A stretch of 62,831 bases of DNA, counting the filler. It is 4 parts of 4 records of this genome, joined end to end, with 100 filler letters (N's around TTAATTAATTAA, not from the genome) between each part and the next. Parts side by side here need not be neighbours in the genome. Positions count along the whole stretch, not along the records: positions 1 to 28,179 come from SRR31156797_4766; 3 more parts are not named here. One strand, written 5' to 3'. This document shows, one piece after another, positions 8,841 to 56,956 of this stretch. Both the position numbers and the translations under genes were made by a program. The notes beneath the pieces were generated by a model. That model made no database searches. It had not been told where the DNA came from and saw nothing but the letters and a program-made list of their open reading frames with translations. Each line of letters begins with the position of its first letter. Position 1 is the first letter of the stretch.

Positions 8841-8847
8841 AAAACAC

Positions 8848-8882
8848 CGCCCCAGATATTCAATAAATGAATTTCTGGGGCG
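8848..8882 (+). terminator. Probable intrinsic terminator after gadB
   Basis: CGCCCCAGA...TCTGGGGCG stem followed by a T-rich stretch. Confidence 0.6.
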
Positions 8883-9001
8883 ATTTTAATTTATCAGCTT
8901 CAACTCCAAACCTCATCATACAGCAAACTCCTTGTCATAATTCCCGCCCCTATGGCATAGTTAACACAACTATAAAAACGACCCTACAACTGGAGCTGAA
9001 T

Positions 9002-9349
9002 ATGACCTTCGAAGAACTAATCGCCACCACTGACAAACCCGTTATTGCCGCAGACATTAATGGAATCATCTCCATGATCAATACTGCTTTCAGCAATGAA
9101 TTCGGCTGGCAACCGGAAGAACTTGCGGGCAAAGCTTTGACGACCATAATTCCTTCTGCTTTACGTGATGCTCATCAACTTGGGTTCTCCGCTTATGTTT
9201 CAACCGGCAAAGCCTCCCTGCTCGGACAACATCTGGATCTTGAGATCGAAAATAGCGACGGTTCGATATCACTTGCTGACCATTATATCCTAAACGGTGA
9301 GATTGACGGAGAAAAAAGTTTCGCAGCCTGCATTTCCCCACGCAAATAA
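9002..9349 (+). CDS. Stand-alone PAS domain protein
   Basis: Start refined to ATG 9002 after GGAG. 'INTAFSNEFGWQPEELAGKALTTIIP...RDAHQ' is PAS-like with a FixL-position His. Confidence 0.7.
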   Translation: MTFEELIATTDKPVIAADINGIISMINTAFSNEFGWQPEELAGKALTTIIPSALRDAHQLGFSAYVSTGKASLLGQHLDLEIENSDGSISLADHYILNGEIDGEKSFAACISPRK

Positions 9350-9358
9350 GGCATCCTG

Positions 9359-11809
9359 ATGAAAGGAAGAGATCAAATCATTGCAGAATTGCGTTCAGTT
9401 ATCGGAAGACTGGAAGCGGTTTTAAGCTCCATTGATGAAGCTATCCTCTGGACCGACCACGAAGGCAAAGCTAAATGGTGCAACGACAGCTTTGCGCAAT
9501 TGCTAAGTTTAAAACGCATCTTCATCATGGGGAAGGAAGTCAGCAAAATATTTCCCCTCTCCCAGCGAGGTCAGGAACTTCCGCCTGAAGCCCATCCTCT
9601 TGTTGTTGCCCTGCGCAATCAAACATCACAACAGGGTAACTACACCTTCGGCCCGGAAAACATTCCCTTTGTCGTCAAGGTCCAGTATCTGAGAACAGTG
9701 GAAGGCCCGCCGACTACAATCATCATTGCCCGTGACTCATCTCAGGAAAAAGAACTGGCCGAATATCGCATTCAAGGAGCCGCACTGGCCGCAGCAGCCA
9801 ATGCTATTGTCATTTTGGACAGCATCGGCCGGGTCCACTGGATTAACAATGCCTTCACTTCTATGACCGGATACAATTTCGATGAAGTGTATGGAAAAAC
9901 CCTGAAAATCCTTAAATCAGGCAGACAATCATCTGAATTTTATAAAAACCTGTGGAACACAATCCTCTCCGGAAAGACATGGACTGGCGAGCTCATCAAC
10001 CGTCGCAAGAACGGCGAAACATATTATGAAGAACAGCGCATCACCCCGGTGGTGGATACGCAAGGCAATGTTATCAATTTTATCGCCATCAAAAGCGACA
10101 TAACTGAGAAAAAACTAGCCCAAAAAGCCCTTGAAGACCGGGAAGCAAAGTTATCCGCCCTCTTTAACGGAGTTATCGATGCCATTGTCACTGCCGATTC
10201 CAGTGGGAAAATATTATCCGTAAACCCGGCTGCGGAAAAAATATTTGGATACGCTCCCGGTGAGCTTGATGGACAGAATGTTCGAATCCTTGTTCCCCCT
10301 GAATTAAGGCCAAATCATGATAGTTTCATCAGACGGTATTTAAAGACAGGCATCCCAAAAGTGATCGGATTCGGAAGAGAAGTAGAGGCTATACATAAAA
10401 ACGGAACACGTTTCCCTGTTGATCTTTCCATTAATGAAATACGAACTCCTGACGCGGTTATGTTTACCGCCATTGTGCGCGACATCTCCGAGCGCAAGGA
10501 GCAGGAAAGACGGTTGCGCATGCTAAATGACCAGTTGGAACAACTCGTTGATGAACGCACAGCAGCCCTGACCCGCAAAACGGAAGAACTGACCATAGAA
10601 GTAGCCGAACGCAAAAAAGCCGAAACCGAAATACGGCAGAACCGAGAACTACTCCGGTCACTATTGGATGGGATATCTGCTGCTTTTCTGATTATTGATC
10701 TTGAAGACAGGATCATTGCCGAGACAAATGAAATAGCGGAAAACATGTTCGGGCTATCAAGGGGGAAACTTCTGGGGCGCAATTGCGATCGAATTTTCGC
10801 CAACCAAGGTAAATATCAGGAAGAAATCTGCCCCAGATCATATGAAGAAGAATCCACCAAGGAAACTGTGATTTTCGGCAGTGACGGACGAACACTTCCC
10901 GTGACCCGCCATGTTTTGCCTATCACCATAGGCACCCGCCCACATCTGGCGGTAATTCTCTTTGATATTTCCGAACGGAAAAGTCTTGAGCGCAAACTTG
11001 AGATGGCCCGCAAGTTAGAATCCATCGGCAGGCTGGCCTCAGGAATTGCCCATGAAATCAACACTCCGATCCAGTACGTTGGCAACTCAGTCCATTTTCA
11101 AAAAGAAGCATTTGCTGATTTCCTGAGGATTCACCAGATGGACAACCGCATCCTTAAAGAGTGCCGCAAGACGGGGCTTTTTCCGAACCTGCTTAACGAA
11201 CGGGACCGCATTGCTGAAGATGAAGATCTTGATTTTCTCGTCACTGAAATCCCTGAATCCTGTGATCGCGCACTTGAAGGGGTCAGCCGTGTAGCTGGAA
11301 TTGTACAGGCAATGAAAGACTTTTCGCACCCCGGACAACAAAAGATGCAACCCGCTGATATTAACAGTCTGATCACTACTACAACCACAGTTTCGCGCAA
11401 TGAATGGAAGTATTATGCCGAGATGGATATGCAGCTTGGGAAAATACCGCTGGTTAACTGTTTTCAGGGCAATATAAATCAGGTCCTTTTAAATATGATC
11501 GTCAATGCTGCCCATGCCATCAGGGATAAATACAAAAACACAGGCAAAACCGGAAAAATAACCATTTCCACATATCAAAAAGACGAAGAAGTTCGAATCA
11601 GTATCAGTGATGATGGTACTGGAATTCCTGATCAAATCAGGGACAAAATATTTGAACCATTCTTTACGACGAAGAAGGTTGGGGAAGGCAGCGGGCAAGG
11701 ACTTGCGATTGTTCATGATATTATCGTCACCAAGCATGGCGGAGCCGTCGACCTTGATTCAATACCGGATGTAGGCACAACCTTTACCATTCGCCTGCCC
11801 CTCATGTAA
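9359..11809 (+). CDS. Cytoplasmic multi-PAS sensor histidine kinase
   Basis: Four PAS repeats, H-box 'AHEINTPIQY', 'NAAHA', 'DDGTGIP' and 'GSGQGL'. No TM segments seen. Confidence 0.92.
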   Translation: MKGRDQIIAELRSVIGRLEAVLSSIDEAILWTDHEGKAKWCNDSFAQLLSLKRIFIMGKEVSKIFPLSQRGQELPPEAHPLVVALRNQTSQQGNYTFGPENIPFVVKVQYLRTVEGPPTTIIIARDSSQEKELAEYRIQGAALAAAANAIVILDSIGRVHWINNAFTSMTGYNFDEVYGKTLKILKSGRQSSEFYKNLWNTILSGKTWTGELINRRKNGETYYEEQRITPVVDTQGNVINFIAIKSDITEKKLAQKALEDREAKLSALFNGVIDAIVTADSSGKILSVNPAAEKIFGYAPGELDGQNVRILVPPELRPNHDSFIRRYLKTGIPKVIGFGREVEAIHKNGTRFPVDLSINEIRTPDAVMFTAIVRDISERKEQERRLRMLNDQLEQLVDERTAALTRKTEELTIEVAERKKAETEIRQNRELLRSLLDGISAAFLIIDLEDRIIAETNEIAENMFGLSRGKLLGRNCDRIFANQGKYQEEICPRSYEEESTKETVIFGSDGRTLPVTRHVLPITIGTRPHLAVILFDISERKSLERKLEMARKLESIGRLASGIAHEINTPIQYVGNSVHFQKEAFADFLRIHQMDNRILKECRKTGLFPNLLNERDRIAEDEDLDFLVTEIPESCDRALEGVSRVAGIVQAMKDFSHPGQQKMQPADINSLITTTTTVSRNEWKYYAEMDMQLGKIPLVNCFQGNINQVLLNMIVNAAHAIRDKYKNTGKTGKITISTYQKDEEVRISISDDGTGIPDQIRDKIFEPFFTTKKVGEGSGQGLAIVHDIIVTKHGGAVDLDSIPDVGTTFTIRLPLM

Positions 11810-11981
11810 TTACGCAAGAGCTTGTTTTATAAAGGTTTCGAACTGAAAACATACTCTATTACACACTCGCCAATATCGTTTCAAACCTAAAAAACTATTT
11901 ATTTAATAGACCTTTTCCCAAAATTCATATTAATATTATACCAACGCTTAACTCTTTACTGGTTTGCTGAGGTTTGCACTG

Positions 11982-13127
11982 ATGAAGCCCAGAATTCTCT
12001 TTGTAGACGACGACCCGAACATACTCACTTCCTTTCGTAGTCTGCTGCGCAAAGAATTTAAAATTGATACCGCCGACCATCCTGAAAAAGGATTGGCACT
12101 TTTCAAAGAGAACGGCCCGTATCCCGTTGTTGTGTCCGACCTTAAAATGCCGGATATGAACGGGCTGGAATTTCTTGCGGAAATTGAAAAAATAGACAAA
12201 GACGCCGTCGGCATAATTTTGACCGGACATGCAGACATCAAGGCTGCGCTCACTGCTCTCAATCAAGGACATGTCTTCCGTTTTCTGACTAAACCGGCGG
12301 AACGCGACACTATTACCAATATCATCAATGCCGGACTTGCTCAGCACAAGCTGATCACCGGAAATAAACATAAGGCCCGGATCATCAAAGAGGACCTCGC
12401 GGCTGCAGCGTTCATCCAGCAAAGTTTCTTGCCCAAAGAAACCTGTGCTCTGGGCAGTGTCTGCCTGAGCTGGGTGTTCAAACCAAGTGGCGATGTTGGC
12501 GGGGATATGTTTAATCTGGTTCCCCTTGATGACGACAAAACTGCGTTCTACCTGCTGGACATCAGCGGGCATGGAGTTTCCGCTGCGTTAGCTGCAATCT
12601 CCGTCTCCCGGCTGCTCTCACGATCCGATCATTTCACCGCACAGCAGAACAGGGTAATTCCTCCCTCAGAACTGCTCAAACAACTCGATGCTGACTTTCC
12701 CATTGAGCGGATGAACAAACATTTCACTATGTTTTACAGCGTGGTCAGCAAATCGGAAAAAACTCTCACTTACAGCAGTGCCGGACACCTGCCCCCGCTT
12801 CTGCTGCGCCAAAACAGCGACATTGAGTATCTTGAAAAAGGCGGAAGTGTCATCGGCGTTAATGCGGGTATCCCTTTTGAGCAGGAAACAGTGCCATTTT
12901 ATCCCGGAGACCGTCTAATAAGCTACACCGACGGCCTTTCTGAATATGAATCCCCAAGTGGAGAACAATTCGGAGCACCGCGCCTTGAATCCTGTATACT
13001 GAACCATTCTTCGGAAGGTTCAGCTCGCCTGCTGGACTATGTCTACAATGAAATGCTGACCTTTGGCGAGAATCATCCTTTACAGGATGATGTAACTCTC
13101 TGCTGCCTTGAGTTCATGGAAGAGTAA
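11982..13127 (+). CDS. Response regulator fused to SpoIIE/PP2C phosphatase (RsbU-like)
   Basis: REC 'ILFVDDD', 'VVSDLKMP', 'FLTKP'. PP2C 'VGGDMF', 'DISGHG', 'YTDGLSE', 'DDVT'. Confidence 0.9.
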   Translation: MKPRILFVDDDPNILTSFRSLLRKEFKIDTADHPEKGLALFKENGPYPVVVSDLKMPDMNGLEFLAEIEKIDKDAVGIILTGHADIKAALTALNQGHVFRFLTKPAERDTITNIINAGLAQHKLITGNKHKARIIKEDLAAAAFIQQSFLPKETCALGSVCLSWVFKPSGDVGGDMFNLVPLDDDKTAFYLLDISGHGVSAALAAISVSRLLSRSDHFTAQQNRVIPPSELLKQLDADFPIERMNKHFTMFYSVVSKSEKTLTYSSAGHLPPLLLRQNSDIEYLEKGGSVIGVNAGIPFEQETVPFYPGDRLISYTDGLSEYESPSGEQFGAPRLESCILNHSSEGSARLLDYVYNEMLTFGENHPLQDDVTLCCLEFMEE

Positions 13128-13129
13128 CC

Positions 13130-14101
13130 ATGAGCAGCAATCCACTTCCACACGACATATACTCCGCCCTTGCACGGCGTATGGGCGAAACCGCAGTTTC
13201 GCAACGCTTAAGGATGCAGGTCGAGCATGCTGCATCATGGTTCGGCAAAGGATTCGGGCATATTCATCTGGAAAATCTGGATACTTTTATAAATTTTGTG
13301 GACGGCACCCTCCGCATAAGCAGAATGCGTGAGCGGGGCAGGCGAAACAGCCTTGATTTTAGAATTAAGAGAAATGAAGTCCACATCCCCGGACTTCCTG
13401 ATCCCCTTGACGGGCTCAGAATACTGCACCTGACCGATATTCATATCGATGGTTTCATTGACGGCGGAGAAGCTCTATTGTCTACGGTCACCCCCTTGCA
13501 TTGTGACCTCTGCGTGCTCACCGGAGACTACCGCTTACTGACCCATCACAGCCACAAGCCCTCTGCTATCGGCATGTCCCGGCTGGTCACCAAGATAAAC
13601 GCACCTCACGGGATATACGGTATCCTCGGAAACCACGACTTTATTGAGCAGGTTCCGGCCCTTGAAGAAAGCGGCGTGCGCATGCTGCTCAACGAAGGAG
13701 AAACCATCAAACACAACGGTGCCGAACTTTTCATTGCCGGGGTGGATGATCCCCATTTCTATGGGACCTATGACCTTGACCGGGCTTTCCGGTCCCGACC
13801 GCAAGTAACACCAACAATCCTGCTCAGCCATTCCCCGGAACTATATGCGGAAGCTGCCGCCCGTTCCGTGGAACTCTATCTCTGCGGTCACACCCATGGC
13901 GGCCAAATCTGCCTCCCCGGAGGAATTCCGATCATCACCCACGCAGCCTGTCCCCGTTCTATGACATCTGGCAGCTGGGTTTATGAAAACATGTCCGGCT
14001 ACACTTCTCGTGGAGCCGGATGTTCCGGTGTACAGGCTCGTTTCAATTGCCCGCCGGAAGTCACAATTCACATTTTACGCAGCACAGGAGACGGGGCATG
14101 A
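13130..14101 (+). CDS. Calcineurin-like metallophosphoesterase (YkuE/YaeI-like)
   Basis: 'HLTDIH', 'LTGDY', 'LGNHD', 'LLSHSP' and 'GHTHGGQ'. Confidence 0.9.
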   Translation: MSSNPLPHDIYSALARRMGETAVSQRLRMQVEHAASWFGKGFGHIHLENLDTFINFVDGTLRISRMRERGRRNSLDFRIKRNEVHIPGLPDPLDGLRILHLTDIHIDGFIDGGEALLSTVTPLHCDLCVLTGDYRLLTHHSHKPSAIGMSRLVTKINAPHGIYGILGNHDFIEQVPALEESGVRMLLNEGETIKHNGAELFIAGVDDPHFYGTYDLDRAFRSRPQVTPTILLSHSPELYAEAAARSVELYLCGHTHGGQICLPGGIPIITHAACPRSMTSGSWVYENMSGYTSRGAGCSGVQARFNCPPEVTIHILRSTGDGA

Positions 14102-14520
14102 ACAAACCGCTTTTCATGAACCGCAGATTCAGCGCAGACCTGAAAAACATGTCCATCAGTGCGGAAATGGTCCGCCAATGCAGGGCCATCCTGCCCATGG
14201 ATGAGAAGATAGGACAGGACATTGACCTTGCTGTTTCTGAAGCGGTCTCCAACGCGATCAGGCATAGCAATTCCTTGGGAGAATCCAGTATTGCCCTGCG
14301 CTTAATCTCAGATGGTAAAAAGCTGATTGTCGAAGTGGAGGATTCCGGTCCCGGATTTGATTTTGAACTTATTCAGACTCCTGACCTGAATACCCCGCAA
14401 GAAGGCGGCTACGGACTTTTCCTGATAAAACAGGTAATGGATTCGGTCAGCTATGAACGCAGACAGGGCGGCAATGTCCTGAGCATGGAAAAACTGCTTA
14501 CGGCAAAGGAGGACACATAA
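14098..14520 (+). CDS. Anti-sigma-factor-type Ser kinase (RsbW-like)
   Basis: 'LAVSEAVSNAIRH', 'VEDSGPGFD' and 'GGYGLFLIKQVMD'. ATGA overlap with the upstream gene. Confidence 0.88.
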   Translation: MNKPLFMNRRFSADLKNMSISAEMVRQCRAILPMDEKIGQDIDLAVSEAVSNAIRHSNSLGESSIALRLISDGKKLIVEVEDSGPGFDFELIQTPDLNTPQEGGYGLFLIKQVMDSVSYERRQGGNVLSMEKLLTAKEDT

Positions 14521-14871
14521 ATGGAATACCTGCTCGTTGTTCTATCCGTGACCATGACCACACTGGGCCAGATATTCCAAAAGCTGGGAGCAGTGCGTAT
14601 CAAGGAAGAAATGTCTGCAGGAAAATCTGTCGTTGCCGCAGCAGCAAATATACACATTATTCTGGGCATCGCAGCCCTCGGGTCAGGAGCTTTCCTCTGG
14701 CTCATGGTTCTTTCACGCATGGAACTAAGCCTTGCCTATCCCATGATGAGTCTGGGCTACGTGCTGGTGACCATTGCTTCAAAATACTTCTTTAAAGAAG
14801 AGATTCCCATGCACCGCTACATCGGCATCGCAACCATCATAATGGGCATAGTCCTGATCTCAAGGAGCTAG
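14521..14871 (+). CDS. ArnE-like SMR/EamA flippase subunit
   Basis: 116 aa, 4 TM. 'GQIFQK' and 'LSLAYPMMSLGYVLV'. Confidence 0.75.
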   Translation: MEYLLVVLSVTMTTLGQIFQKLGAVRIKEEMSAGKSVVAAAANIHIILGIAALGSGAFLWLMVLSRMELSLAYPMMSLGYVLVTIASKYFFKEEIPMHRYIGIATIIMGIVLISRS

Positions 14872-14874
14872 ACA

Positions 14875-15231
14875 ATGAAATCGTATCTACTTGTTGCCTG
14901 CTCGGTGATCCTCGGTGTTCTGGGACAGCTTTTCATGAAAAAAGGCATGGTCGTGCTCGGTCCGCTGAACGAGCCGACTATCATGACCGCTTTTACCATT
15001 GTCTTCCAGCCGTGGGTCTTCAGCGGTCTTGTCTCCTATGGATTGGCCATGATGATCTGGGTGGCGGTTTTAAGCCGTCTGGACCTCAGCTATGCTTATC
15101 CATTGCTCAGCTCAGGGTACGTGTTGGTAGCCCTTGGCTCATGGTGGATGTTCGGGGATTCAATTTCCGCAACACGTTGGGCCGGAATTCTGGTAATATC
15201 AGCAGGTGTCGTACTCACGGCCAAAAAATGA
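14875..15231 (+). CDS. ArnF-like SMR/EamA flippase subunit
   Basis: 118 aa, 4 TM. 'GQLFMKKG' and 'LDLSYAYPLLSSGYV'. Paired with the preceding paralog. Confidence 0.75.
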   Translation: MKSYLLVACSVILGVLGQLFMKKGMVVLGPLNEPTIMTAFTIVFQPWVFSGLVSYGLAMMIWVAVLSRLDLSYAYPLLSSGYVLVALGSWWMFGDSISATRWAGILVISAGVVLTAKK

Positions 15232-15239
15232 GGTATCTC

Positions 15240-15986
15240 ATGAGTGATAAAAATTTTGAATATTATCTCTCGGTGGTCATCCCGGCCTACAATGAACAGG
15301 AGCGCATTGCCGACACCCTATACACGGTCAAGGAGTTCCTCGATGAGCAGCCTTACAAAAGCGAGATCATTATCGTGGATGACGGCAGCCGGGATTGGAC
15401 CACTGAAGTGGTCAAGACTGTGGACATCTACAATCAGGAGATGAAAGCCCAGAACGTCAGTGCCATCATGGAAAACGTAAAAAACGTGGGCAAAGGATTT
15501 TCCGTGGCCCGGGGCATGCTCCGCGCCAAAGGCAAGTTCGTGCTTTTTTCCGATGCTGACCTATCCACGCCCATCAGCGAAATCAACAAACTGCTGCCCG
15601 CACTCGAGCAGGGCTGCGATATTGCCATAGGTTCCCGGCGTATGGCCGAATCAGAAGTTGAAAAGAAACCATTTTACCGCGATCTGATGAGCTTTGTCTT
15701 CAATTCGGTGGTTGGTTTATTCGCCGTTCGCGGCATCAAAGACACCCAATGCGGATTCAAGGCCTTTCGCAATGAGGTAGCTCACAAAATTGCCGACAAA
15801 CAAAAGCTGTACGGATTCAGTTTCGATGTGGAGCAACTTTTTCTGGCCCGCAAGCTTGGCTATTGTATCGAAGAAGTACCCGTAAAATGGGAACATGCCG
15901 AAGGGTCCAAGGTCGACCCGCTACGTGATTCCATCCGCATGTTCATGGATGTAATGCGCATTCGAATGCTGCACAGGAATTTATAG
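15240..15986 (+). CDS. GT2 polyprenyl-phosphate glycosyltransferase (dolichyl-P beta-glucosyltransferase-like)
   Basis: 'LSVVIPAYNE', 'VDDGSRD', 'NVGKGFSV', 'FSDADL', 'DTQCGFKAF' and 'FDVE'. Confidence 0.88.
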   Translation: MSDKNFEYYLSVVIPAYNEQERIADTLYTVKEFLDEQPYKSEIIIVDDGSRDWTTEVVKTVDIYNQEMKAQNVSAIMENVKNVGKGFSVARGMLRAKGKFVLFSDADLSTPISEINKLLPALEQGCDIAIGSRRMAESEVEKKPFYRDLMSFVFNSVVGLFAVRGIKDTQCGFKAFRNEVAHKIADKQKLYGFSFDVEQLFLARKLGYCIEEVPVKWEHAEGSKVDPLRDSIRMFMDVMRIRMLHRNL

Positions 15987-15999
15987 AGGAGGACTTGAT

Positions 16000-16335
16000 A
16001 TGCTGAAAGTGGATATTAAAAATGTGAATGACATTTGCGTAGTTAAACCCGGAACCCAACGCCTTGATGCCAGCACTGCTGTTGATTTCAAAAATACCCT
16101 GCTCAAGCTGATTGAGGAAGGGAACCTGCGGCTGCTGATCAATCTGGAAAATGTGAATTTTATCGACAGTTCCGGCCTTGGAGCAATCATCTCCGCCATG
16201 CGGCAGGTCGGTGTAAAAGGAGACATCAAACTCTGTGACGTTGCCGAACAAGTGGAAGAACTGCTGCGGCTGACCAGACTGAACAAAGTTCTGCAAATCT
16301 TCCCCGGCGAAAAAGAGGCACAGGAAGGGTATTAA
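16000..16335 (+). CDS. STAS anti-anti-sigma factor (RsbV/SpoIIAA-like)
   Basis: 'VNFIDSSGLGAII' contains the phosphoacceptor Ser. Confidence 0.9.
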   Translation: MLKVDIKNVNDICVVKPGTQRLDASTAVDFKNTLLKLIEEGNLRLLINLENVNFIDSSGLGAIISAMRQVGVKGDIKLCDVAEQVEELLRLTRLNKVLQIFPGEKEAQEGY

Positions 16336-16341
16336 TCGACC

Positions 16342-19516: not shown

Positions 19517-19522
19517 GCGAAA

Positions 19523-20566: not shown

Positions 20567-20573
20567 GTTGCGG

Positions 20574-22088
20574 ATGGAAAATGCAGTTTTCATAAGACTA
20601 GTTCAAACCAGCATATTTATTGTGCTGCTCTTTTGCTGCGGCTGTAAATCCATGCACAGCAGCAAGGGAGAACCGTTTGTTTACCGCATTGCTACGGCTG
20701 AGATAAAACCGCGTAGTGCCGCATCCCCCAATTTCTTCTGGTCCAAAAACGAAACTACCCAGTTGACTGACAAAGAGCAGGAAATGGGACGATACGCATG
20801 GCAATACTTCACCCGCACAGTTTTCCCGGAAACCGGACTTCCACAGGGTGCAGTGGGCAGCGACACCCTGACCATGGATAACGTTGCCGGATACCTTGCC
20901 GCACTGACCTGCGCCAAACGAATCGGTGTGTTGGAGGATATTGAATTTCATGAGCGCATGACCAAGCTGATTACGTGGCTGAACAAGATGAAACTCAACT
21001 CGCTGGGCGTTCCGAATACATTCTACAGCGGGCGTACCGGACAATCTCTTAACGGTATCAGTCAGCCCGGAGAAGACGGACATTCAGCCCTTGATATCGG
21101 GCGGTTGCTGATCTGGCTGCGCATTGTGCATAATGAATTCCCCACCCACGCTGCCGCCATCGACCGCGCGGTACTGCGCTGGAATTTCCGCAAACTCATT
21201 GATGCCGAAGGCTTGCTCTACGGATCATACTACCGCGACGGGAGGCTTCATCCCTATCGCGAAGGCCGTTTCGGGAAATTACAATATGCGGCCAAGGGAT
21301 TGGCTCTTTGGGGATTCAGGGTGGACGCATCAATGGAGTCGGGCAAGACCTCATTAATGACCATCAACAATATTCTGCTGCCCTTTGACAACCGCTACTC
21401 CCATATTTCACCCATCCCGCGTCCGCAGGGAGAACCGTTTCAGCCCGGAGCGGTAACAACAACTGCACCGCTGCTGGACGGTATGGAATTCGATTGGAAA
21501 ATCCCCACCCCAAAAGAGGATTCAAAAAATTGGAAGGTCGACCAAAAATCGCTGCAATTGGCCCGCTCCATCTATGCAGTCCAGAGATCCCGCTATGCAA
21601 CCAAAGGTTTGCTCACCGCCCGCGCAGCCCACAACCTTGACCGACCACCGTATTTTGTCATCGATTCAGTTTTCGCACTGGGTGATCCATTCGTCACCAT
21701 GGATAAATCCGGCAATCCACAACCCAAACAAGCCTGCGTCTCCAGCAGTGCTTCTTTCCAGCTCTGGGCTATGTTCGAAGGGCAATACACTGACATGTTG
21801 ATGGATGCGGTTGAAACACTCTTTGACCAATATGGCGGCTGGTATGCCGGATTTTACGAAGACGGAGGAGCAACGAACAAGGCAATTTCCTTAAATGACA
21901 ATGCGGTCATTCTAGAATCGCTGGCTTTTATACTGAACGGCCCGTTGTTCAAAACGAATTTACAGCCGGGATATTGGGAGCTGACCCTTGAAGCTAAATC
22001 GTTTGAAGCACAAGGGTTGCCCCCGGCAAAATTCCAGCAGCAATTCCAGCCCATGCTGGACATTAGAAAAGCGGAGCCGCGTCCATGA
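20574..22088 (+). CDS. DUF3131-type protein 2 (probable lipoprotein)
   Basis: Lipobox-like 'LLFCCGC', plus 'AWQYF', 'SALDIGRL' and 'NAVILE'. Confidence 0.75.
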   Translation: MENAVFIRLVQTSIFIVLLFCCGCKSMHSSKGEPFVYRIATAEIKPRSAASPNFFWSKNETTQLTDKEQEMGRYAWQYFTRTVFPETGLPQGAVGSDTLTMDNVAGYLAALTCAKRIGVLEDIEFHERMTKLITWLNKMKLNSLGVPNTFYSGRTGQSLNGISQPGEDGHSALDIGRLLIWLRIVHNEFPTHAAAIDRAVLRWNFRKLIDAEGLLYGSYYRDGRLHPYREGRFGKLQYAAKGLALWGFRVDASMESGKTSLMTINNILLPFDNRYSHISPIPRPQGEPFQPGAVTTTAPLLDGMEFDWKIPTPKEDSKNWKVDQKSLQLARSIYAVQRSRYATKGLLTARAAHNLDRPPYFVIDSVFALGDPFVTMDKSGNPQPKQACVSSSASFQLWAMFEGQYTDMLMDAVETLFDQYGGWYAGFYEDGGATNKAISLNDNAVILESLAFILNGPLFKTNLQPGYWELTLEAKSFEAQGLPPAKFQQQFQPMLDIRKAEPRP

Positions 22089-23497
22089 TTCCACGGGTAG
22101 TAAAATATATATTTACTCTGAGCGTATTTGTTACGCTGCTCGGCTCCGCTGCCGTCTGCATGGCTGAAATCAAGCCTGCCATGCGCCAGATTCCACGCCA
22201 AGGACCGCTTACCGAACGTGAGGTAGGCTGGGCCAAAACCGCATGGAGCTACTTTCAAAACAACGTAAATCCTGAAACCGGCTTAGCCGGAGCACAGCCC
22301 AATTATTCGCCTTTCACCATGTGGGATCTCTCCGCGCACATGGCCGCGATTCTCTCGGCAAATGAGTTGGGACTGATAGATGATAAAGAATTTGATTCGC
22401 GCATGCGTAAGATCATCTCATGGTTAAATGTCATGGAACTTTTTCGCGGGGACCTGCCCAACCAGTTCTACAGTGCAGACAACGGGGCCATGGTTGATTG
22501 GTCCAACCAGCCCGGTGCGCTCGGCTGGTCTGCATTAGATCTCGGCAGGTTGCTCATCTGGCTGCGCATCATCAAGGAACGCCACCCTGAATACGCGGAA
22601 CAAATCGACCGCGCCATAATGCGCTGGAACTGGACCAAGCTCATGGACCGCAACGGAACCATGTTCGGGGCCAGCTATTACCAACGCGACGAAAACAATC
22701 TCATCCATTACGCCGAAGGACGGCTTGGTTATGAAGAATATGCCGCGCGCGGATTCGGTCTATGGGGAGCGGACACAACTGCGGCCTCTAAAATTCATCC
22801 CTATTCCACAGTTACAATTTACGGCGTCCCCATTCCCTTTGACGCCCGTGATCCTGAAAATGAACATGCCCCAAACTTTGTGGTCACCGAAAATTTCGTT
22901 CTCGATGGCATTGAGCACAATTGGGATCTGCCCGAGAACCGCAACACCAACGTGCATAAGCATACTGATCCCATGCAGGCCAAATTTGCGTGGGCGGTTT
23001 ATAAGGCACAGGAAGGACGATTTCTGAACACAGGGATTCTCACCGCTAAAACCGAGGATGCCGTGGATCAGGCCCCGTATTTTGTCTACGACACCATCCT
23101 CGGACACGGCATTCCTTACGCAACCATGAGTCATGAAGGTAAGGCCATGCCGGAACTTGCCTGTTTGAACACCAAAGCAGCCCTCGGACTTTGGGTGCTT
23201 TTCAAGTCCGACTACACCGATCTTTTAGCCGAGGTAGCCTCAACCATGTTTGAGCCGGGAAAAGGATTCTACGTGGGCCGTTACGAAAAAACAGGCAAAA
23301 TCAATAGGGCCATAACCATGAACGGAAACGGGGTAATCATGGAAATCCTGCTCTACAAGACGCAGGGCAAATTGCTCAAGTACAGCAACAAGGAAAGTTA
23401 TTGGGACAAGTTTTTTGAAAATTATTCACTGCCTTCCAAGGCCCTGCCGCCATGGAAGTATCAACCGTATATTACTATTCATAAGTATGATCCTTAG
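22085..23497 (+). CDS. DUF3131-type protein 3 (secreted)
   Basis: Signal peptide, plus 'AWSYFQNN', 'TMWD', 'GWSALDLGRL' and 'EGRLGYEEY'. Confidence 0.8.
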   Translation: MIPRVVKYIFTLSVFVTLLGSAAVCMAEIKPAMRQIPRQGPLTEREVGWAKTAWSYFQNNVNPETGLAGAQPNYSPFTMWDLSAHMAAILSANELGLIDDKEFDSRMRKIISWLNVMELFRGDLPNQFYSADNGAMVDWSNQPGALGWSALDLGRLLIWLRIIKERHPEYAEQIDRAIMRWNWTKLMDRNGTMFGASYYQRDENNLIHYAEGRLGYEEYAARGFGLWGADTTAASKIHPYSTVTIYGVPIPFDARDPENEHAPNFVVTENFVLDGIEHNWDLPENRNTNVHKHTDPMQAKFAWAVYKAQEGRFLNTGILTAKTEDAVDQAPYFVYDTILGHGIPYATMSHEGKAMPELACLNTKAALGLWVLFKSDYTDLLAEVASTMFEPGKGFYVGRYEKTGKINRAITMNGNGVIMEILLYKTQGKLLKYSNKESYWDKFFENYSLPSKALPPWKYQPYITIHKYDP

Positions 23498-23501
23498 GGA
23501 T

Positions 23502-23537
23502 GCCTCCGGCGGCTTAAACCTTTTATTAGGCTTCGCC
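23502..23537 (-). repeat. Short copy of a REP-like intergenic repeat
   Basis: Reverse complement GGCGAAGCCTAATAAAAGGTTTAAGCCGCCGGAGGC matches the start of the element at 28141. Confidence 0.6.
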
Positions 23538-23555
23538 TTTTTGAATGGAGAATTA

Positions 23556-24962
23556 ATGCTAAAACGGATGACTGTCATATTTTTACTGTGTCTGCTCATG
23601 TTGCTGGCAGGCTGCGGTGCTGTTTATGAGACAGTCAAATGCGGTTTCGACTTCGGCGATGACCGTGGCGATATTGTGCTGACCAATTGCCACCGCCTGT
23701 CGGATCGCGGGCAATTGTTTGCTGAAGTGGCGTGGACCTATTTTGAAAAAAATTACAATGTTCAAACCGGATTGGTAAATGCGGCGGAAAATTACCCCTA
23801 TACGTCCATCGGTGAAATCGCGGCTTATCTTTCGGCGCTGATTTCTGCCCACGAAATGGATCTTCTTGATGAACGCCGTTTTTGCCAGCGGGTGGGGAAA
23901 CTGGTGGAATGGCTCAATGCCATGGAACTTTATGCCGGGGAGCTGCCCAACCTGATTTACAATTCACACACCGGACGCATGGTCGGCTTTGATATGAAAC
24001 CGGGTAAGGCCGGGTTCTCCTCCATGGACATCGGGCGACTCTTGATCTGGTTGCGGGTATTGAAAACAAAATATCCGCTCTTTGCTGAGGGTGTGGACCG
24101 CGCGGTGCTACGCTGGAATTTCTGCATGATTATAGACAAAGACGGAACCCTGCGCAGCGGGCGGTTTGTGAATGGACAGACTGAATTTATCCACGAAGGA
24201 CGCCTCGGCTGGGAAGGTTATGCTGCACGCGGATATGAGATGTGGGGCATTGATGTAAAATCCACTGTTCCTTCGCCGCTCAGGTATATTGAAATTTACG
24301 GACGCAAAGTTCCCTATGATCCGCGCGATTCCATTACCACCGGGATTCCGGTTTACCTCACCTCCACACCATTCCTGCTGGAAGGTATGGAATTCGGATA
24401 TTCTGACGTGGGCATACCGGAAGAACACCGCACCGGAGATGACGCTCTTGAGCGTTACGATCTGGCCCGTGGCATCTATGAAATTCAGGAAGAACGTTAC
24501 CGCCGTGAAGGTATCATGACTGCCCGCAGTGAAAATGGAGTGGATAAACCGCCCTATGCGGTAATCGGCACCATCACTGCCGAGGGCAAACTCTGGCCGA
24601 CCATCTCCCGCGGCGGAGATATGCATTACGATCTGGCCATGTTCTCCACCCGGGCTATCTTCGGCATGTGGTCCATCTGGGACACCGATTACACTAAATT
24701 TATCATGGCTGCCGCTGCCTGCTGCTTTTTCGAAGAAGGACGCGGCTGGTTTGAGGGCCGTTACGAAAAAAACTGGCGCATCAACAAAGTCATGGTTCTG
24801 GAAACAAATGCAGTGGTCCTTGAAGCACTGCTGCATCGCTTGGACGGTCCATTGGTCCGGGTTGCCAAGGAACCTAGCTTTATCGACTTTTACCTGCGTA
24901 AAGAACTGCCCATGAGCGACTATCCGCGCTGTTTACCGGGTAGGGAAAGGGAGGACATATGA
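23556..24962 (+). CDS. DUF3131-type protein 4 (lipoprotein)
   Basis: Start refined to ATG 23556 after GGAG. Lipobox 'LLAGC', plus 'AWTYFEKN', 'SSMDIGRL' and 'EGRLGWEGY'. Confidence 0.78.
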   Translation: MLKRMTVIFLLCLLMLLAGCGAVYETVKCGFDFGDDRGDIVLTNCHRLSDRGQLFAEVAWTYFEKNYNVQTGLVNAAENYPYTSIGEIAAYLSALISAHEMDLLDERRFCQRVGKLVEWLNAMELYAGELPNLIYNSHTGRMVGFDMKPGKAGFSSMDIGRLLIWLRVLKTKYPLFAEGVDRAVLRWNFCMIIDKDGTLRSGRFVNGQTEFIHEGRLGWEGYAARGYEMWGIDVKSTVPSPLRYIEIYGRKVPYDPRDSITTGIPVYLTSTPFLLEGMEFGYSDVGIPEEHRTGDDALERYDLARGIYEIQEERYRREGIMTARSENGVDKPPYAVIGTITAEGKLWPTISRGGDMHYDLAMFSTRAIFGMWSIWDTDYTKFIMAAAACCFFEEGRGWFEGRYEKNWRINKVMVLETNAVVLEALLHRLDGPLVRVAKEPSFIDFYLRKELPMSDYPRCLPGREREDI

Positions 24963-26851
24963 TGTTTAGACCCTTACGCATAGCCATATTTATGCTGCTC
25001 ATGCTGTCAGCTTCTAATATCCATACTGCCCACGCGGCCTTTGACGGTTTGGGACAGCTGGTCTCAAGCCCGACTTTTGCCGAAGCTGTGGTGCTTTATA
25101 AAAATGGTAAATATGATCCATCGGCTTTATTGCTGGATGATCTGGCCCGCAACCTACGCGGCATTTCCCCGGAAGTGAGCGGTCTGGTCTTTGTCATGGC
25201 TTCTCGCGCGGCGGAGAATGCCGGGAATGCACGGGCGTATGAATCGTGGGGCATGGCAACGGCCCGTTTTGCCCGTGCTGGCATGAGCTGGCAACAGGTC
25301 CGCTCTACCTTAGACCAGCAGCTTGAAATGGCAAGACTGGGGGCCTCCGGTCCTGCAGCAGTTGGAGCCGGGCAATCTCCGGGGTTTGCCGGGCCAGCAG
25401 TGAATTTGCCCCCGGAAGCAGGACGGCTCTCAACCGCGTGGAAACTTTTCGGGCTTAAGCATTATAAGCGACCCGCGCCGGGATTGCGCCGCGAAATGAC
25501 CGCAGACCAGATCTGGAATGAAATGGATGGCGGTGCCGAGGCTCCGGTTACGGTCATTCCCTATTCCGAAGGCGTTTGGGGCCAGCCTCAATCTTCCGGC
25601 AAACTCAATGAACAGAATATTGCGAACGGTCCAGCGATACGTCCCAGTCCTTCCACTCCAACACAATTAAAAGATGTGCCCCATAATCACAGTGGGGCGG
25701 CTGCGGCTGCTTCCTATGCTGCTTCAACACAGAAGAAAAAGCCCGCAGTGAGTGAGCAGTATATGCAAGCGGCACGTATTGCTTGGAAATATTTTCAACG
25801 GAATTACCAACCTGCAACAGGACTATATAATGGTCTTGATCTCTACCCGATAACCACAGTCTGGGAGATCGGCACTTCCCTTGCCGCCTTGAACGCGGCT
25901 CACCATCTTGAAATCATCACTGATGCTGAATTCCGGCAACGGACCGGGCTCATGCTTCAGACCCTGTCCTCCATGGACCTTTATAACAATGAGTTGCCCA
26001 ACAAACTTTATTTTGCGGATTCCGCACGCATGGTCGGAAAAGACCAGAAACCAACGTCCACAGGAATCGGCTGGAACGGACCTGACATCGGACGCCTGCT
26101 GCTCTGGCTCAAAAAGACTGCCGAAAAACACCCGGAATTCAAGTCAATCTGCGACAAAATTTTCCTACGTTTGCGCACAGAGCGACTGGTCAAGAACGGC
26201 AATATCATTAGCCTGTCCGTTTATTTGAACAAAGAACAGCTTCAGCTGGCAGCAGGTTTTGGCCAACCCTCATATGCTGCCGAAGCCTTTAAGCTTTGGA
26301 ATCTGGACGCATGGAAAACACGTGATTACCGCCCGCAGCTGGGTTTCAAAAAAATATTCGGAATTAATATTCCATTTAATAAATCCGGTCCGGACATAAC
26401 GTCCACCCCATTTACGCTCATGCTCATGGAGCTGGGCAGAAGCGGCAATGAACAAGACCGTATGATCCGTTCCATCTACGAAGTTCAAGCCGCACGGCAC
26501 GGTAAATCCGGGAAACTTACTGCAGCCGACAGTGGACGTATTGACCGCAGTCCGTGGGTGGCCCAAAGCGCGATAATCACTGCAAATGGTGCCGCGAAAT
26601 GGAAATGCATCAGCCCATATTCAGACAAAACGCTGCCGTTGTTCTGGGCCTCAACCGGTACAGCCTTCTGCTGGGATGCTCTGTTCAATACAGCCTATAC
26701 CCGTAAACTGGTGCAGGAATTAACTCCCCTGCATGACAAGAATAAAGGATTCATGGCCGGTAAATACGACACCGGAGAAACAAATAAAGCCGTAACACTT
26801 GAAACAAACGGCTTGATCCTTGAAGCCGCCATGTACAGGAGGAATCAATGA
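24959..26851 (+). CDS. DUF3131-type protein 5 with N-terminal helical domain and Pro/Ala/Ser linker
   Basis: Signal peptide (AHA|A) and ~260-aa extension, then 'AWKYFQRN', 'PDIGRL' and 'TNGLILE'. Confidence 0.75.
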   Translation: MMFRPLRIAIFMLLMLSASNIHTAHAAFDGLGQLVSSPTFAEAVVLYKNGKYDPSALLLDDLARNLRGISPEVSGLVFVMASRAAENAGNARAYESWGMATARFARAGMSWQQVRSTLDQQLEMARLGASGPAAVGAGQSPGFAGPAVNLPPEAGRLSTAWKLFGLKHYKRPAPGLRREMTADQIWNEMDGGAEAPVTVIPYSEGVWGQPQSSGKLNEQNIANGPAIRPSPSTPTQLKDVPHNHSGAAAAASYAASTQKKKPAVSEQYMQAARIAWKYFQRNYQPATGLYNGLDLYPITTVWEIGTSLAALNAAHHLEIITDAEFRQRTGLMLQTLSSMDLYNNELPNKLYFADSARMVGKDQKPTSTGIGWNGPDIGRLLLWLKKTAEKHPEFKSICDKIFLRLRTERLVKNGNIISLSVYLNKEQLQLAAGFGQPSYAAEAFKLWNLDAWKTRDYRPQLGFKKIFGINIPFNKSGPDITSTPFTLMLMELGRSGNEQDRMIRSIYEVQAARHGKSGKLTAADSGRIDRSPWVAQSAIITANGAAKWKCISPYSDKTLPLFWASTGTAFCWDALFNTAYTRKLVQELTPLHDKNKGFMAGKYDTGETNKAVTLETNGLILEAAMYRRNQ

Positions 26852-28119
26852 AATTTCACCAACTACAAGTTCTTGCGTTTATTCTCATACTGCTTGCAGG
26901 CTGCGCCAAATCCCCCACACCCGACAATCCAATCACTTTAACCGTGTACGGGGATGTAAACCGTGTTTTTGAAAAAAACAGTACCGAAATAGGTTCCATC
27001 AATGATTTCATGGAAATCCATCCGGAAATCGAAGTTAAGGTTATCCCGGAATACAGTGAATGGACCATCCACAAAGAAGCCTTACGCACGTTACGTGATC
27101 CAGAAGCAGAACAGCCGGACGTTATTGAAATGCCCGGAAGCTGGGCCGCTGCTTTCGCGCAAGAAGGACTGCTTCTGCCCATCGGTAAGTGGTACGATAA
27201 CCTGCCGCGCCGGGAAAAAATGGATTTTCTGGAACCTGCAGTCATTGGCTATAAATTCGGTGACGAATTATACGGCTTGCCCGCACTGATCGGAGTGCAA
27301 TATCTTTATGGACGCAAAGACCTGCTCCCGGAATCCGGTCTTCCCCAAACCCTCGAAGAACTGGTGGCAGCCACCCGTTACATAAAAAAAGAACATAACA
27401 TCCAAGGATTGATCTTTCCTTCCAAGGGGATGAATCTCTACAAATTTTATTATACCCTGCTTCAAATCGTTCTGGACGGTCAGGAAGAGGAAGACCGCCT
27501 TGCCGCCCACATCGCAGCCTACAAAACCTTCAAAATTCTGGTGCAGGAAAATCAGCCGGACTATGAAAAATTCGACCATGTTGTTGCTGAAGGCGAATTC
27601 CGTTCCGGGCGAGCAGGCATGTCCATCAACGGCAATTACGTCTGGTATCTGCTTAGTCTTTCCAAAGGAGTAGGTTTCCCGGTGCACCCGGAACATGTGA
27701 CAGTAGGCTTCCTGCCCATGCTGGGACATGAAGCGCACCGGGTCAATCATATATGGACCCGTGGCTACGCCATCAACAAACACACCAAACATCCACAGCA
27801 GGCTCTTGAACTACTCCATCACCTGACCTCAGAGCGGGCCGACTTCATGCGCCTCAAAAACAAATACATCCTGCCCGCGCGCAGGTCTGCCGAGCAATAC
27901 GGAGAGACCCTACCCGGCATGGCACCGAAGCCAGCCCGGGCACTTTACGCCCGCAGCAAAGGAGACCCCGGTGCGCTGGAACTGAACGAATCCCCGGATA
28001 ACTGGTATGATACTGCCAGCAAAATGCTGGAGCTACTCAAAGAAGCACTAAAAACAGACATGGAAACGCTAAAGTTTGCACGCAAAATGCTGGAGACAGA
28101 GAAAGGAATTATGAACTAG
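26848..28119 (+). CDS. Extracellular solute-binding lipoprotein (carbohydrate ABC family 1-like)
   Basis: Lipobox 'LLAGC', plus 'PDVI', 'LYGLP', 'LYGRKDL' and 'PQTLEEL'. Confidence 0.75.
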   Translation: MKFHQLQVLAFILILLAGCAKSPTPDNPITLTVYGDVNRVFEKNSTEIGSINDFMEIHPEIEVKVIPEYSEWTIHKEALRTLRDPEAEQPDVIEMPGSWAAAFAQEGLLLPIGKWYDNLPRREKMDFLEPAVIGYKFGDELYGLPALIGVQYLYGRKDLLPESGLPQTLEELVAATRYIKKEHNIQGLIFPSKGMNLYKFYYTLLQIVLDGQEEEDRLAAHIAAYKTFKILVQENQPDYEKFDHVVAEGEFRSGRAGMSINGNYVWYLLSLSKGVGFPVHPEHVTVGFLPMLGHEAHRVNHIWTRGYAINKHTKHPQQALELLHHLTSERADFMRLKNKYILPARRSAEQYGETLPGMAPKPARALYARSKGDPGALELNESPDNWYDTASKMLELLKEALKTDMETLKFARKMLETEKGIMN

Positions 28120-28140
28120 CACAAACAGACCAAACAAAGC

Positions 28141-28179
28141 GGCGAAGCCCTATTAAAAGTTTTTGGGATTCTTAAACCC
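28141..28179 (+). repeat. REP-like repeat truncated at contig end
   Basis: GGCGAAGCCCTATTAAAAGTTTTTGGGATTCTTAAACCC, related to 23502-23537 and loosely to 1-38. Confidence 0.55.
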
Positions 28180-56939: not shown

Positions 56940-56956
56940 GCAGATTGGGAGGAAAA

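Follow-up and report, generated by a model that had tools for sequence, protein, structure and literature searches.

The subject of this analysis is a run of 17 genes at positions 8867-28119 of a bacterial DNA stretch of 62,831 nucleotides (the window), whose positions 1 to 28,179 come from record SRR31156797_4766. We read the region as the Desulfovibrionaceae version of a widespread, synthase-dependent system for production of a beta-glycan, most likely a beta-glucan, gated by a partner switch that has no sigma factor. The probability that we give to this reading is about 0.55. A preliminary description of the same DNA had proposed an undescribed, redox-controlled system for beta-glucan synthesis and processing, encoded by 16 genes and endowed with five DUF3131 paralogs. 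As detailed below, a large part of that proposal stands, while the type of control and the linkage of the polymer are less certain.

Open reading frame (ORF) calling and Pfam scanning delimited 17 consecutive, co-oriented ORFs on the + strand. Gaps or overlaps of 13 bp or less are found at 14 of the 16 junctions, the exceptions being 154 bp before the REC-PP2C gene and about 58 bp before the fourth DUF3131 gene (D4). All the families listed in the preliminary description are present on the + strand, but the genes are 17 and not 16; the start given there, 9002, is an internal ATG of a PAS ORF that begins at 8867. Starts were refined for three genes: the small GT2 (ATG at 15228), the RsbW-like gene (14098) and D4 (23556). 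The features of the cluster are the following (aa, amino acids; TM, transmembrane):

8867..9349, + strand: small PAS protein (Pfam PAS, E 1.2e-7), also present in the close relative L001; the internal ATG at 9002 is a possible start
9359..11809, + strand: cytoplasmic four-PAS sensor histidine kinase (PAS_9, E 7e-52 in 4 stretches; HATPase_c, E 1.2e-24)
11964..13127, + strand: REC-PP2C protein, RsbU-like arm (SpoIIE, E 1.2e-39; Response_reg, E 3.2e-20)
13130..14101, + strand: metallophosphoesterase, YaeI/LpxG-like (Metallophos, E 2.9e-11; YaeI 85 bits and LpxG 84 bits, both below cut-off)
14098..14520, + strand: RsbW-like serine kinase or anti-sigma-type ATPase (HATPase_c_2, E 7e-25; longest ORF from 14020)
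14521..14871, + strand: half-size EamA/SMR membrane protein 1, ArnE/F-like (EamA, E 1.6e-7; Multi_Drug_Res, E 9e-4; TM-like segments)
14875..15231, + strand: half-size EamA/SMR membrane protein 2, ArnE/F-like (EamA, E 1.1e-5; TM-like segments)
15228..15986, + strand: small GT2 with an ArnC/DPM1-like catalytic domain (Glycos_transf_2, E 2.4e-24; its ATG overlaps the upstream stop)
16000..16335, + strand: STAS anti-anti-sigma-type protein (STAS, E 1.3e-16; phospho-serine motif DSSG), lying 6 bp ahead of the synthase
16342..18153, + strand: BcsA-like processive GT2 synthase, 603 aa (BcsA as best PDB relatives; QRFKY; no PilZ)
18150..19516, + strand: DUF3131 protein D1, membrane-anchored class (E 1.8e-137); frameshifted, the remainder lying in the frame of ORF 18107-19516
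18206..18227, + strand: 11-bp perfect tandem duplication inside D1 (copies 18206-18216 and 18217-18227)
19523..20566, + strand: secreted 347-aa protein without Pfam family, predicted 12-stranded outer-membrane beta-barrel
20568..22088, + strand: DUF3131 protein D2, middle exported class (E 3.4e-81; hydrophobic N-terminus ending in CCGC)
22085..23497, + strand: DUF3131 protein D3, middle exported class (E 3.5e-115; signal-like N-terminus)
23556..24962, + strand: DUF3131 protein D4, middle class, LAGC lipobox (E 1.6e-95; longest ORF from 23415)
24959..26851, + strand: DUF3131 protein D5, long form (E 3.6e-95 at residues 270-628; N-terminal extension of about 265 aa)
26848..28119, + strand: MalE-type solute-binding lipoprotein (SBP_bac_1/8; SBP_bac_8, E 6.4e-21; LAGC lipobox)

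To find out how widely this arrangement occurs, a query alignment made of the window synthase and 14 of 120 listed homologs was scanned against one genome per species. Synthase relatives were encoded in at least 584 species genomes (584 of 600 matching stretches). Eighty loci were kept, and the window proteins were mapped onto all their ORFs (phmmer, E 1e-6 or better); ORFs left unmatched were clustered, and one representative per cluster was scanned. Component counts refer to the 56 loci in which the synthase is flanked by 9 kb or more on each side, and presence elsewhere in the genome was checked in cassette-bearing relatives. DUF3131 is encoded in 55 of the 56 loci; STAS, RsbW-like and REC-PP2C proteins are found in 54 each, and the 347-aa barrel protein in 45. 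Less frequent components are a nucleotidyltransferase (NTP_transferase, 33/56), GH2 (21/56), a hybrid kinase (17/56), GH9 (16/56), OpgC or Acyl_transf_3 (16/56), H-NOX (8/56) and glycogen phosphorylase (7/56). The phosphoesterase, the SMR pair and the binding protein occur in 3 of 56 loci, which are the three Desulfovibrionaceae loci.

Copies of DUF3131 per locus are distributed as follows: none in 1 locus, one in 3, two in 12, three in 21, four in 16 and five in 3. The five paralogs announced by the preliminary description are indeed in the window (Pfam E 1e-81 to 1e-137), but they represent a lineage-specific expansion, as the mode across loci is three. The component counts thus define a core, made up by this comparison of REC-PP2C, STAS, RsbW, the synthase, the anchored DUF3131, further DUF3131 copies and the barrel. 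The five copies are specific to Desulfovibrionaceae, and so are the accessory elements, namely the ArnE/F-like pair, the small GT2, the phosphoesterase and the binding protein. Sequence of 2 kb or more downstream of the synthase is available in 71 loci, and in 60 of them the start of a DUF3131 gene falls between -200 and +400 bp relative to the synthase stop. In the remaining 11, D1 is the next mapped gene but lies further off (3 loci), an OpgC gene stands between (1), DUF3131 is elsewhere in the locus (4) or there is none (3, in metagenome-assembled genomes, MAGs, of Acidobacteriota and Acidimicrobiia).

Synteny is therefore conserved, and the cassette recurs across many phyla. Its carriers include marine Vibrionaceae, Shewanella, Thiothrix/Leucothrix, Rhodobacterales, Ignavibacteria and Desulfovibrionaceae, and copies are also carried by large plasmids in Pantoea, Salmonella, Nostoc, Paracoccus and other taxa (28 plasmid records, of which the Pantoea stewartii copy was mapped). 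The window synthase is 92% identical to that of Desulfovibrio sp. JC022 and 94% identical to that of a Maridesulfovibrio MAG chromosome; the host bacterium is judged to be Maridesulfovibrio-like. A full-text literature search, with subscription-only papers and supplements outside its scope, found no published description of the cassette, no functional study of DUF3131 and zero mentions of PF11329 / IPR021478, in agreement with the view that the system is undescribed. What one paper (PMC12974863) does report is a Klebsiella pneumoniae accessory 'block 3b', tied to an ecological gradient, which contains a cellulose synthase, three proteins of the DUF3131 family, OpgC, a hybrid kinase and an anti-sigma factor with its antagonist.

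The nearest solved relatives of the synthase are BcsA chains (E 2.3e-59, profile A2 against the PDB). In an alignment with E. coli BcsA, the FxVTxK gating loop is retained, and the catalytic Asp motifs are kept with DAD for DCD, SED for TED and FCCGAGS for FFCGS. One would therefore consider that the locus might be an unusual cellulose (beta-1,4-glucan) operon for a biofilm matrix, whose synthase would make a cellulose-like polymer of high molecular weight and in which DUF3131 would have just the housekeeping function of BcsZ, perhaps also that of BcsB, with the barrel taking over from BcsC. Two further observations go in the same direction. In 16 of 56 loci, the gene directly upstream of the synthase encodes a secreted GH9 protein, most similar to endo-beta-1,4-glucanases (3x17, E 2e-97), and BcsZ (GH8) is also an (alpha/alpha)6 barrel, albeit lower in the list of fold matches described below. 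Other properties of the synthase make the cellulose explanation unlikely. The motif that aligns with QRIRW of E. coli BcsA is QRFKY, and QxxKY replaces QxxRW in 76 of 79 full-length orthologs. Scores are far below the cut-offs of curated CelA/BcsA models (TIGR03030, 214 bits vs 699; PRK11498, 164 vs 992). The protein begins at about the third helix of BcsA and stops at BcsA residue ~692, before the PilZ region, and the Pfam scan detects no PilZ in it. Among longer synthase relatives, 17 without DUF3131 bear PilZ or TPR domains, with identities of only 28-38%. In addition, the window has no GH9, the fold of DUF3131 is closest to beta-1,2-glucan enzymes, and the barrel is closer to 12-stranded channels for oligosaccharides or nucleosides (Z 10.7-11.8) than to BcsC (Z 6.2).

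The preliminary description had noted that bcsB, bcsC, bcsZ, PilZ, Wzx/Wzy and sigma factors were not visible. This was confirmed: Pfam and NCBIfam scans of the 17 cluster proteins gave zero matches to the PilZ, BcsB/C/Z, Wzx/Wzy, GGDEF/EAL and sigma-factor families. Partners encoded elsewhere had to be considered as well, since they might turn the synthase into an ordinary cellulose synthase. BcsB (PF03170) was not found in the genome of the closest relative (G001), in keeping with the claim of a synthase without cellulose partners. Nor was it found in three others of the five cassette genomes; the fifth, that of Photobacterium profundum, has BcsB at ~270 kb from the cassette, and hence the cassette and a Bcs system coexist in this genome. 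The synthase is not OpgH either, as the OpgH/MdoH model gives 19 bits against a cut-off of 884.

The second pillar of the reading is DUF3131. Sequence and profile searches of the PDB with DUF3131 matched only the GH189 cyclisation domain, over ~95 N-terminal residues (E 0.07, 5e-6 and 6e-6); solved chains of GH144, GH162, GH192 and GH194 were not matched, and no solved structure of any DUF3131 protein was found. A model of D1 was built from the window sequence and 47 of 59 orthologs (pLDDT 87.8). Its best match is the GH189 cyclisation domain (8wy1; Z 34.5, root-mean-square deviation 2.7, 345 residues aligned), followed by full-length Cgs (Z 28.5-31.3), GH144 (Z 29.7-31.0), GH192 (Z 27.5), GH194 (Z 27.4) and GH162 (Z 23). 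Unrelated (alpha/alpha)6 barrels give Z 21.8 or less, and Foldseek ranks clan members and other barrels in the same manner. The Z scores and the Foldseek ranking confirm, at fold level, the link between DUF3131 and the clan of (alpha/alpha)6 beta-1,2-glucanases and transglycosylases (the SGL clan) that the preliminary description had put forward; GH193 and Group 4 have no solved chain, and DUF3131 might belong to either of them.

Residues D199, E254, D297 and E321 (window ORF numbering) are 96-100% conserved over 205 DUF3131 domains, and R202, Y174, Y262 and Y407 are also near-invariant. The residues that define the clan are, according to PMC12102758, a Glu that acts as acid, a Tyr at subsite -3 and a Phe near the nucleophilic water. 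A tree of DUF3131 proteins separates three classes: anchored (D1), middle exported (D2, D3 and D4) and long form (D5). The middle class usually has two genes per cassette, and the nearest outside relatives of D3 are the second genes of typical cassettes. D5 groups with long forms of 630-850 aa and has no equivalents of the conserved E254 and D297, for which reason it is probably a non-catalytic binder. An Atlas search with its N-terminal extension gave best scores of 0.82-0.84, mostly to TPR clusters, which is to be taken as a lead only.

The affinities of DUF3131 bring in a different explanation, which takes up the possible beta-1,2 linkage of the preliminary description: the product would be a linear or cyclic beta-1,2-glucan similar to osmoregulated periplasmic glucans (OPGs), and the cassette would be a 'split' analogue of Cgs, with a GT2 substituting for GT84 and free DUF3131 substituting for GH189. 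We consider it not very probable, despite several arguments for it. GH189 is the closest relative of DUF3131 both in sequence (E 5e-6) and in fold (Z 34.5), and the solved clan members among the top 15 fold rows either act on beta-1,2-glucan or are uncharacterised GH144-like proteins. OpgC or other acyltransferase genes are found in 16 of 56 loci. OpgG (PF04349) is found in none of the five cassette genomes and, in an order sample, in none of 10 cassette genomes vs 64 of 291 others. In Shewanella piezotolerans, a module made up of four DUF3131 genes is among the genes differentially expressed upon salt shock, the direction of the change not being stated (PMC8371737). On the other side, GH9 and GH2 genes are neighbors of the cassette in relatives, and Group 4 of the clan is inactive on beta-1,2-glucan, as stated in PMC12102758. 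The family also seems to follow different polymers, as distant DUF3131 proteins accompany a GT2 fused to CE4 or are combined with DUF2334. No BcsA-type GT2 is known to form beta-1,2 links.

The distant proteins deserve some description. Two of them (845 and 943 aa, ~25% identity) are encoded immediately after other GT2 genes, the overlap being 4 bp (L082, 4280-10080; L083, 1-4106). In Sulfitobacter, a GT2 whose Pfam hits are of the NodC/chitin-synthase type forms a fusion with a CE4 deacetylase and is paired with DUF3131; in Mesorhizobium, a DUF3131 protein with DUF2334 lies beside another GT2. These cases resemble a second type of GT2-DUF3131 pairing, and DUF3131 looks like a general synthase-associated glycanase module. 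Because distant DUF3131 proteins are coupled to other GT2 types, the specificity of the family cannot be read from the clan alone.

The evidence on linkage is thus in conflict: DUF3131 points to beta-1,2, and the synthase and the GH9 of relatives point to beta-1,4. A beta-1,2 linkage is one possibility, to be set against the GH9 genes beside the synthase and the association of distant DUF3131 proteins with other GT2s. A polymer other than a plain glucan, such as a beta-mannan, a glucomannan or an amino-sugar polymer to which DUF3131 would be tuned, must also be weighed. The GH2 of relatives is closest to beta-mannosidases (5n6u, E 2.8e-43), the nucleotidyltransferase has its best match in mannose-1-phosphate guanylyltransferase (170 bits), the changed acceptor motif QxxKY could reflect another sugar, and DUF3131 stands beside a deacetylase-fused GT2 in Sulfitobacter. 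Such a product is nevertheless improbable. The above matches are below family cut-offs, and GH2, GH9 and the nucleotidyltransferase are all outside this window, where none of them was found. Furthermore, glycogen phosphorylase is encoded in 7 of 56 loci, and GH9, the SGL clan and OpgC are all associated with glucans. In L005, L008, L012, L013, L051, L055 and L071 the glycogen phosphorylase gene lies within the cassette or flanks it, and a gene for a sugar-1-phosphate nucleotidyltransferase is its neighbor; this suggests that glucose-1-phosphate derived from glycogen feeds the synthase. The pointers to glucose are hence the similarity to BcsA and, in relatives, glycogen phosphorylase, the sugar-1-phosphate nucleotidyltransferase and neighbors that act on glucans.

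The 347-aa protein carries a signal peptide and, internally, a duplicated motif, and belongs to no Pfam or NCBIfam family. A model made with the window sequence and 36 of 51 homologs (pLDDT 80.2) has its best matches in Tsx (Z 11.8), an autotransporter barrel (11.7), KdgM (11.7), FapF (10.8) and NanC (10.7), and Foldseek also returns outer-membrane barrels, with low TM-scores. In the Atlas, the clusters nearest to the protein are named outer membrane protein. The family is small, with 309 representatives (E 0.001 or better) among 1.84 billion. The protein is accordingly predicted to be an outer-membrane barrel, as the preliminary description had anticipated, with 12 strands.

An oligosaccharide-type porin, a binding lipoprotein and several exported glycanases are also what one would expect in a locus for utilisation of environmental beta-glucans, with the synthase being merely adjacent. 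Such a catabolic role seems very improbable. The cluster contains no ABC permease or ATPase that might serve the lipoprotein (Pfam), and the binding protein is found in 3 of 56 loci vs 60 of 71 for the coupling of synthase and DUF3131. D1 belongs to a membrane-anchored class and its start overlaps the synthase stop, fusions of synthase and DUF3131 exist, and all five DUF3131 copies of the close relative's genome fall inside the cassette. The lipoprotein itself has generic MalE-like PDB relatives only; Lin1841, a binder of beta-1,2-oligosaccharides, is one among many (E 2.3e-5) and is not diagnostic.

The third element of the beta-glycan reading is the regulatory module. The partner-switching set appears complete: a PP2C phosphatase, a STAS protein with a phosphorylatable serine and an RsbW-type kinase with its ATP-binding residues. 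The latter (E48, N52, D82 and G106) are invariant in 43 orthologs, and the DSSG motif of the window STAS is also found in 59 of 76 STAS ORFs of related loci. No sigma factor is encoded by the 17 genes or by the scanned representatives of 23 of the 25 listed neighbor clusters (each common to at least 5 loci); a distant one is possible. In related loci the kinase gene is usually directly beside the synthase gene, and an RsbW-type domain is fused ahead of the synthase in 2 of the 120 listed homologs (P0098 and P0114). As no sigma factor is seen and the RsbW gene either adjoins the synthase gene or is fused to the N-terminus of the synthase, the simplest reading is that the RsbW/STAS pair acts directly on the synthase. 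This probable coupling was missed in the preliminary description. A predicted complex of synthase and RsbW scored 0.00 (mark 0.34), which is no answer and carries no weight either way.

Fusions also connect other components. DUF3131 is fused behind the synthase in 2 of 19 long synthase relatives, and one or two DUF3131 domains precede the barrel in 2 of the 10 long barrel-family proteins scanned (P0141 and P0178). The other eight bear CBM4_9 in one case, an esterase in another and nothing recognisable in six.

Concerning the signal, 'redox-controlled' goes beyond what the window contains: PAS domains are present without evidence of a cofactor, and the four-PAS kinase shows neither a strong TM segment nor the LOV motif NCRF. 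In Thiotrichales loci of the Thiothrix/Leucothrix type, H-NOX, a hybrid histidine kinase and Hpt precede the cassette, an arrangement that suggests nitric oxide or oxygen as an input to REC-PP2C. Gas or redox input is plausible in some lineages. Loci with H-NOX upstream of the synthase include L016, L018, L022, L030, L042, L053, L059, L067, L074 and L079, among others. A gene annotated as 'globin' in the plasmid cassette of Pantoea stewartii gave no match in the Pfam scan and is not taken here as an established haem sensor.

A feature of the window that the preliminary description overlooked is a defect in D1. The native ATG (18150) overlaps the synthase stop and is followed by 23 codons until a TGA at 18219-18221, an early stop caused by the perfect 11-bp duplication at 18206-18227. 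The duplication is absent from the 94%-identical relative L001. It recurs in a contig assembled independently from the probable source run (word depth 281) and is therefore not an artefact of the deposited assembly, with the proviso that both assemblies derive from the same sample. D1 orthologs start at or overlap the synthase stop and possess a conserved short cytoplasmic tail followed by one hydrophobic N-terminal TM helix. The remaining frame is without the membrane anchor, and D1 has therefore probably lost its function in this strain.

On the whole, the mechanism that we envisage for the beta-glycan system can be summarized as follows:

(i). A cytoplasmic sensor kinase (PAS-based here; H-NOX, hybrid kinase and Hpt in Thiotrichales) would phosphorylate the receiver of REC-PP2C.

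(ii). The REC-PP2C phosphatase would set the phosphorylation state of STAS, with the RsbW-like kinase acting in the opposite direction.

(iii). The target of RsbW and STAS would be the synthase, in place of the control of BcsA by PilZ and cyclic di-GMP (c-di-GMP); the lack of a sigma factor in the cassette is the reason to propose it.

(iv). The PilZ-less GT2 would polymerise hexose from a nucleotide-diphosphate sugar and thread the chain across the inner membrane.

(v). A D1-type DUF3131, tethered through a single N-terminal helix and coupled to the synthase in translation, would take over the chain, and further exported DUF3131 paralogs would cut or transglycosylate it into shorter products. 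In this strain the step is probably impaired by the frameshift in D1.

(vi). The products would either remain periplasmic or leave through the 12-stranded oligosaccharide-type barrel, which can be fused to DUF3131.

A number of considerations weigh against this scheme. Its whole basis is gene content, folds, synteny and fusions, from which we infer the rest of the mechanism. The fusions are known from metagenome gene calls, and both synthase-DUF3131 fusions are single-member clusters that could be read-through errors. Binding of RsbW and STAS to the synthase is suggested by fusions and by the missing sigma factor only. In DUF3131, D199 as the base and E254 as the acid are tentative assignments, based on proportional-position mapping onto CpSGL and EeSGL1 and not on residue alignment. 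The enzymes encoded near the cassette in relatives do not speak with one voice: GH9 resembles endo-beta-1,4-glucanases, GH2 is closest to beta-mannosidases, and the nucleotidyltransferase matches mannose-1-phosphate guanylyltransferase, below cut-off. The anti-correlation with OpgG is not significant (P about 0.08) and is confounded by phylogeny. Lastly, the locus may be inactive in this strain, as D1 is frameshifted.

Comparison with known systems helps to place the cassette. Like BcsA-BcsB-BcsZ-BcsC, it has a processive GT2 in the inner membrane that shares the catalytic Asp motifs and the FxVTxK loop, a periplasmic partner encoded directly downstream, an (alpha/alpha)6 glycanase and an outer-membrane barrel. 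It differs from Bcs in the absence of PilZ, in QxxKY instead of QxxRW, and in having a TM-anchored DUF3131 in the place of BcsB; it has one to five SGL-clan glycanases vs one GH8, a 12-stranded barrel without a long TPR arm, and control by a partner switch vs c-di-GMP. With Cgs it shares a membrane glycosyltransferase coupled to an (alpha/alpha)6 domain, the GH189 of Cgs being the closest relative of DUF3131. A succinyl-transferase modifies the cyclic glucan, and the OpgC-type genes near the cassettes of relatives resemble it. In contrast with Cgs, the transferase is GT2 and not GT84, no GH94 phosphorylase domain is present, and DUF3131 proteins are separate and exported, with signal or anchor sequences, whereas GH189 is part of one large polypeptide. 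The OpgGH(C) system also combines an inner-membrane GT2 with periplasmic proteins for glucan processing, and OpgC-family acyltransferases are found in cassettes of relatives. However, the synthase is not OpgH, (alpha/alpha)6 DUF3131 proteins stand in place of OpgG/D (reportedly assigned to GH186), and the cassette adds a barrel and a partner switch.

The regulatory genes recall RsbU/V/W and SpoIIE/AA/AB, with a PP2C phosphatase, a STAS protein that bears the serine of DSSG and an RsbW-type kinase whose ATP-binding residues are intact. The difference is that no sigma factor is seen in or near the cassette and that the kinase gene is usually beside the synthase gene, or fused to it in some metagenome proteins. 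Partner switches with non-sigma outputs have precedents in SypE/SypA of Vibrio fischeri and HsbR/HsbA of Pseudomonas, and the output of Syp is a polysaccharide. As for the barrel, KdgM, NanC and Tsx are its best structural matches, and it has a signal peptide and a size similar to theirs; unlike them, the 347-aa protein forms its own small family, contains a duplicated motif and can be fused to DUF3131, CBM4_9 or an esterase. More generally, the synthase-dependent systems for alginate, poly-N-acetylglucosamine, cellulose and Pel have counterparts here of their synthase, periplasmic glycanase, outer-membrane barrel and post-translational activator genes, with functions that we infer from similarity. 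Unusual traits of the cassette would be the probable direct gating by a partner switch, a dedicated family of SGL-clan glycanases (one to five copies) and a small 12-stranded barrel.

An attractive but doubtful speculation goes one step further: the cassette might represent a fifth kind of synthase-dependent glycan system, occurring in hundreds of species of bacteria, in which the partner switch binds and gates the GT2 directly upon input from gas, redox or other sensor kinases, and DUF3131 proteins, as a new SGL-clan family positioned at both membranes, turn the nascent chain into short or cyclic beta-glucans that serve as an OPG substitute or as a released signal.

If the beta-glycan reading is correct, DUF3131 would be the dedicated glycanase or transglycosylase of a glycan synthase and a new family in the beta-1,2-glucanase clan (with GH193 and Group 4 outside the comparison), and the barrel would be a new small family of outer-membrane channels. 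The partner switch would control an enzyme and not a sigma factor, and would thus provide an alternative to c-di-GMP in the control of polysaccharide synthases. The cassette is widespread, yet it is uncharacterised, and none of its specific parts has a tested function.

Certain accessory genes of the window call for a word of caution. The small GT2 had been labelled a polyprenyl-phosphate GT2, a name that reflects resemblance only, because no TM segment is predicted and its best NCBIfam match, ArnC, gives 64 bits vs a cut-off of 529. The comparison with ArnC/ArnE/ArnF is therefore uneven: two half-size EamA/SMR proteins are present, and the GT2 scores low and lacks TM segments. A secreted protein of ~320-390 aa without Pfam or NCBIfam family ('U390') is encoded in 22 of 56 loci (e.g., L046, 16018-17115); in cassettes of Vibrionaceae and Shewanella its gene comes after those for DUF3131, and the window lacks it.

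The flanks of the cluster look unrelated: a pyridoxal phosphate-dependent decarboxylase gene lies upstream (7446-8840), and CoA-ligase-type genes (Succ_CoA_lig, CoA_binding_2, ATP-grasp_5) lie downstream. Six minus-strand ORFs of 174-280 aa in the cluster region received no assignment in a family scan, and an Rfam scan of 7000-30000 found zero families. Promoter and terminator scans of 8500-28400 gave counts at the level of shuffled sequence (18 vs 21.3 and 24 vs 22.4, respectively).

Two observations concern other parts of the window. A second protein with REC and multiple PAS domains is encoded at 53189-55039, 25 kb downstream of the cluster. In the interval 54000-62831, G+C content falls from about 0.47 to 0.30-0.35 at the 3' end, and the genes encode a DUF1302-like protein, an MMPL/RND transporter, a LolA-like/DUF1329 protein and TetR and MerR/GyrI-like regulators. 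This interval is possibly a horizontally acquired island for efflux or lipid export.

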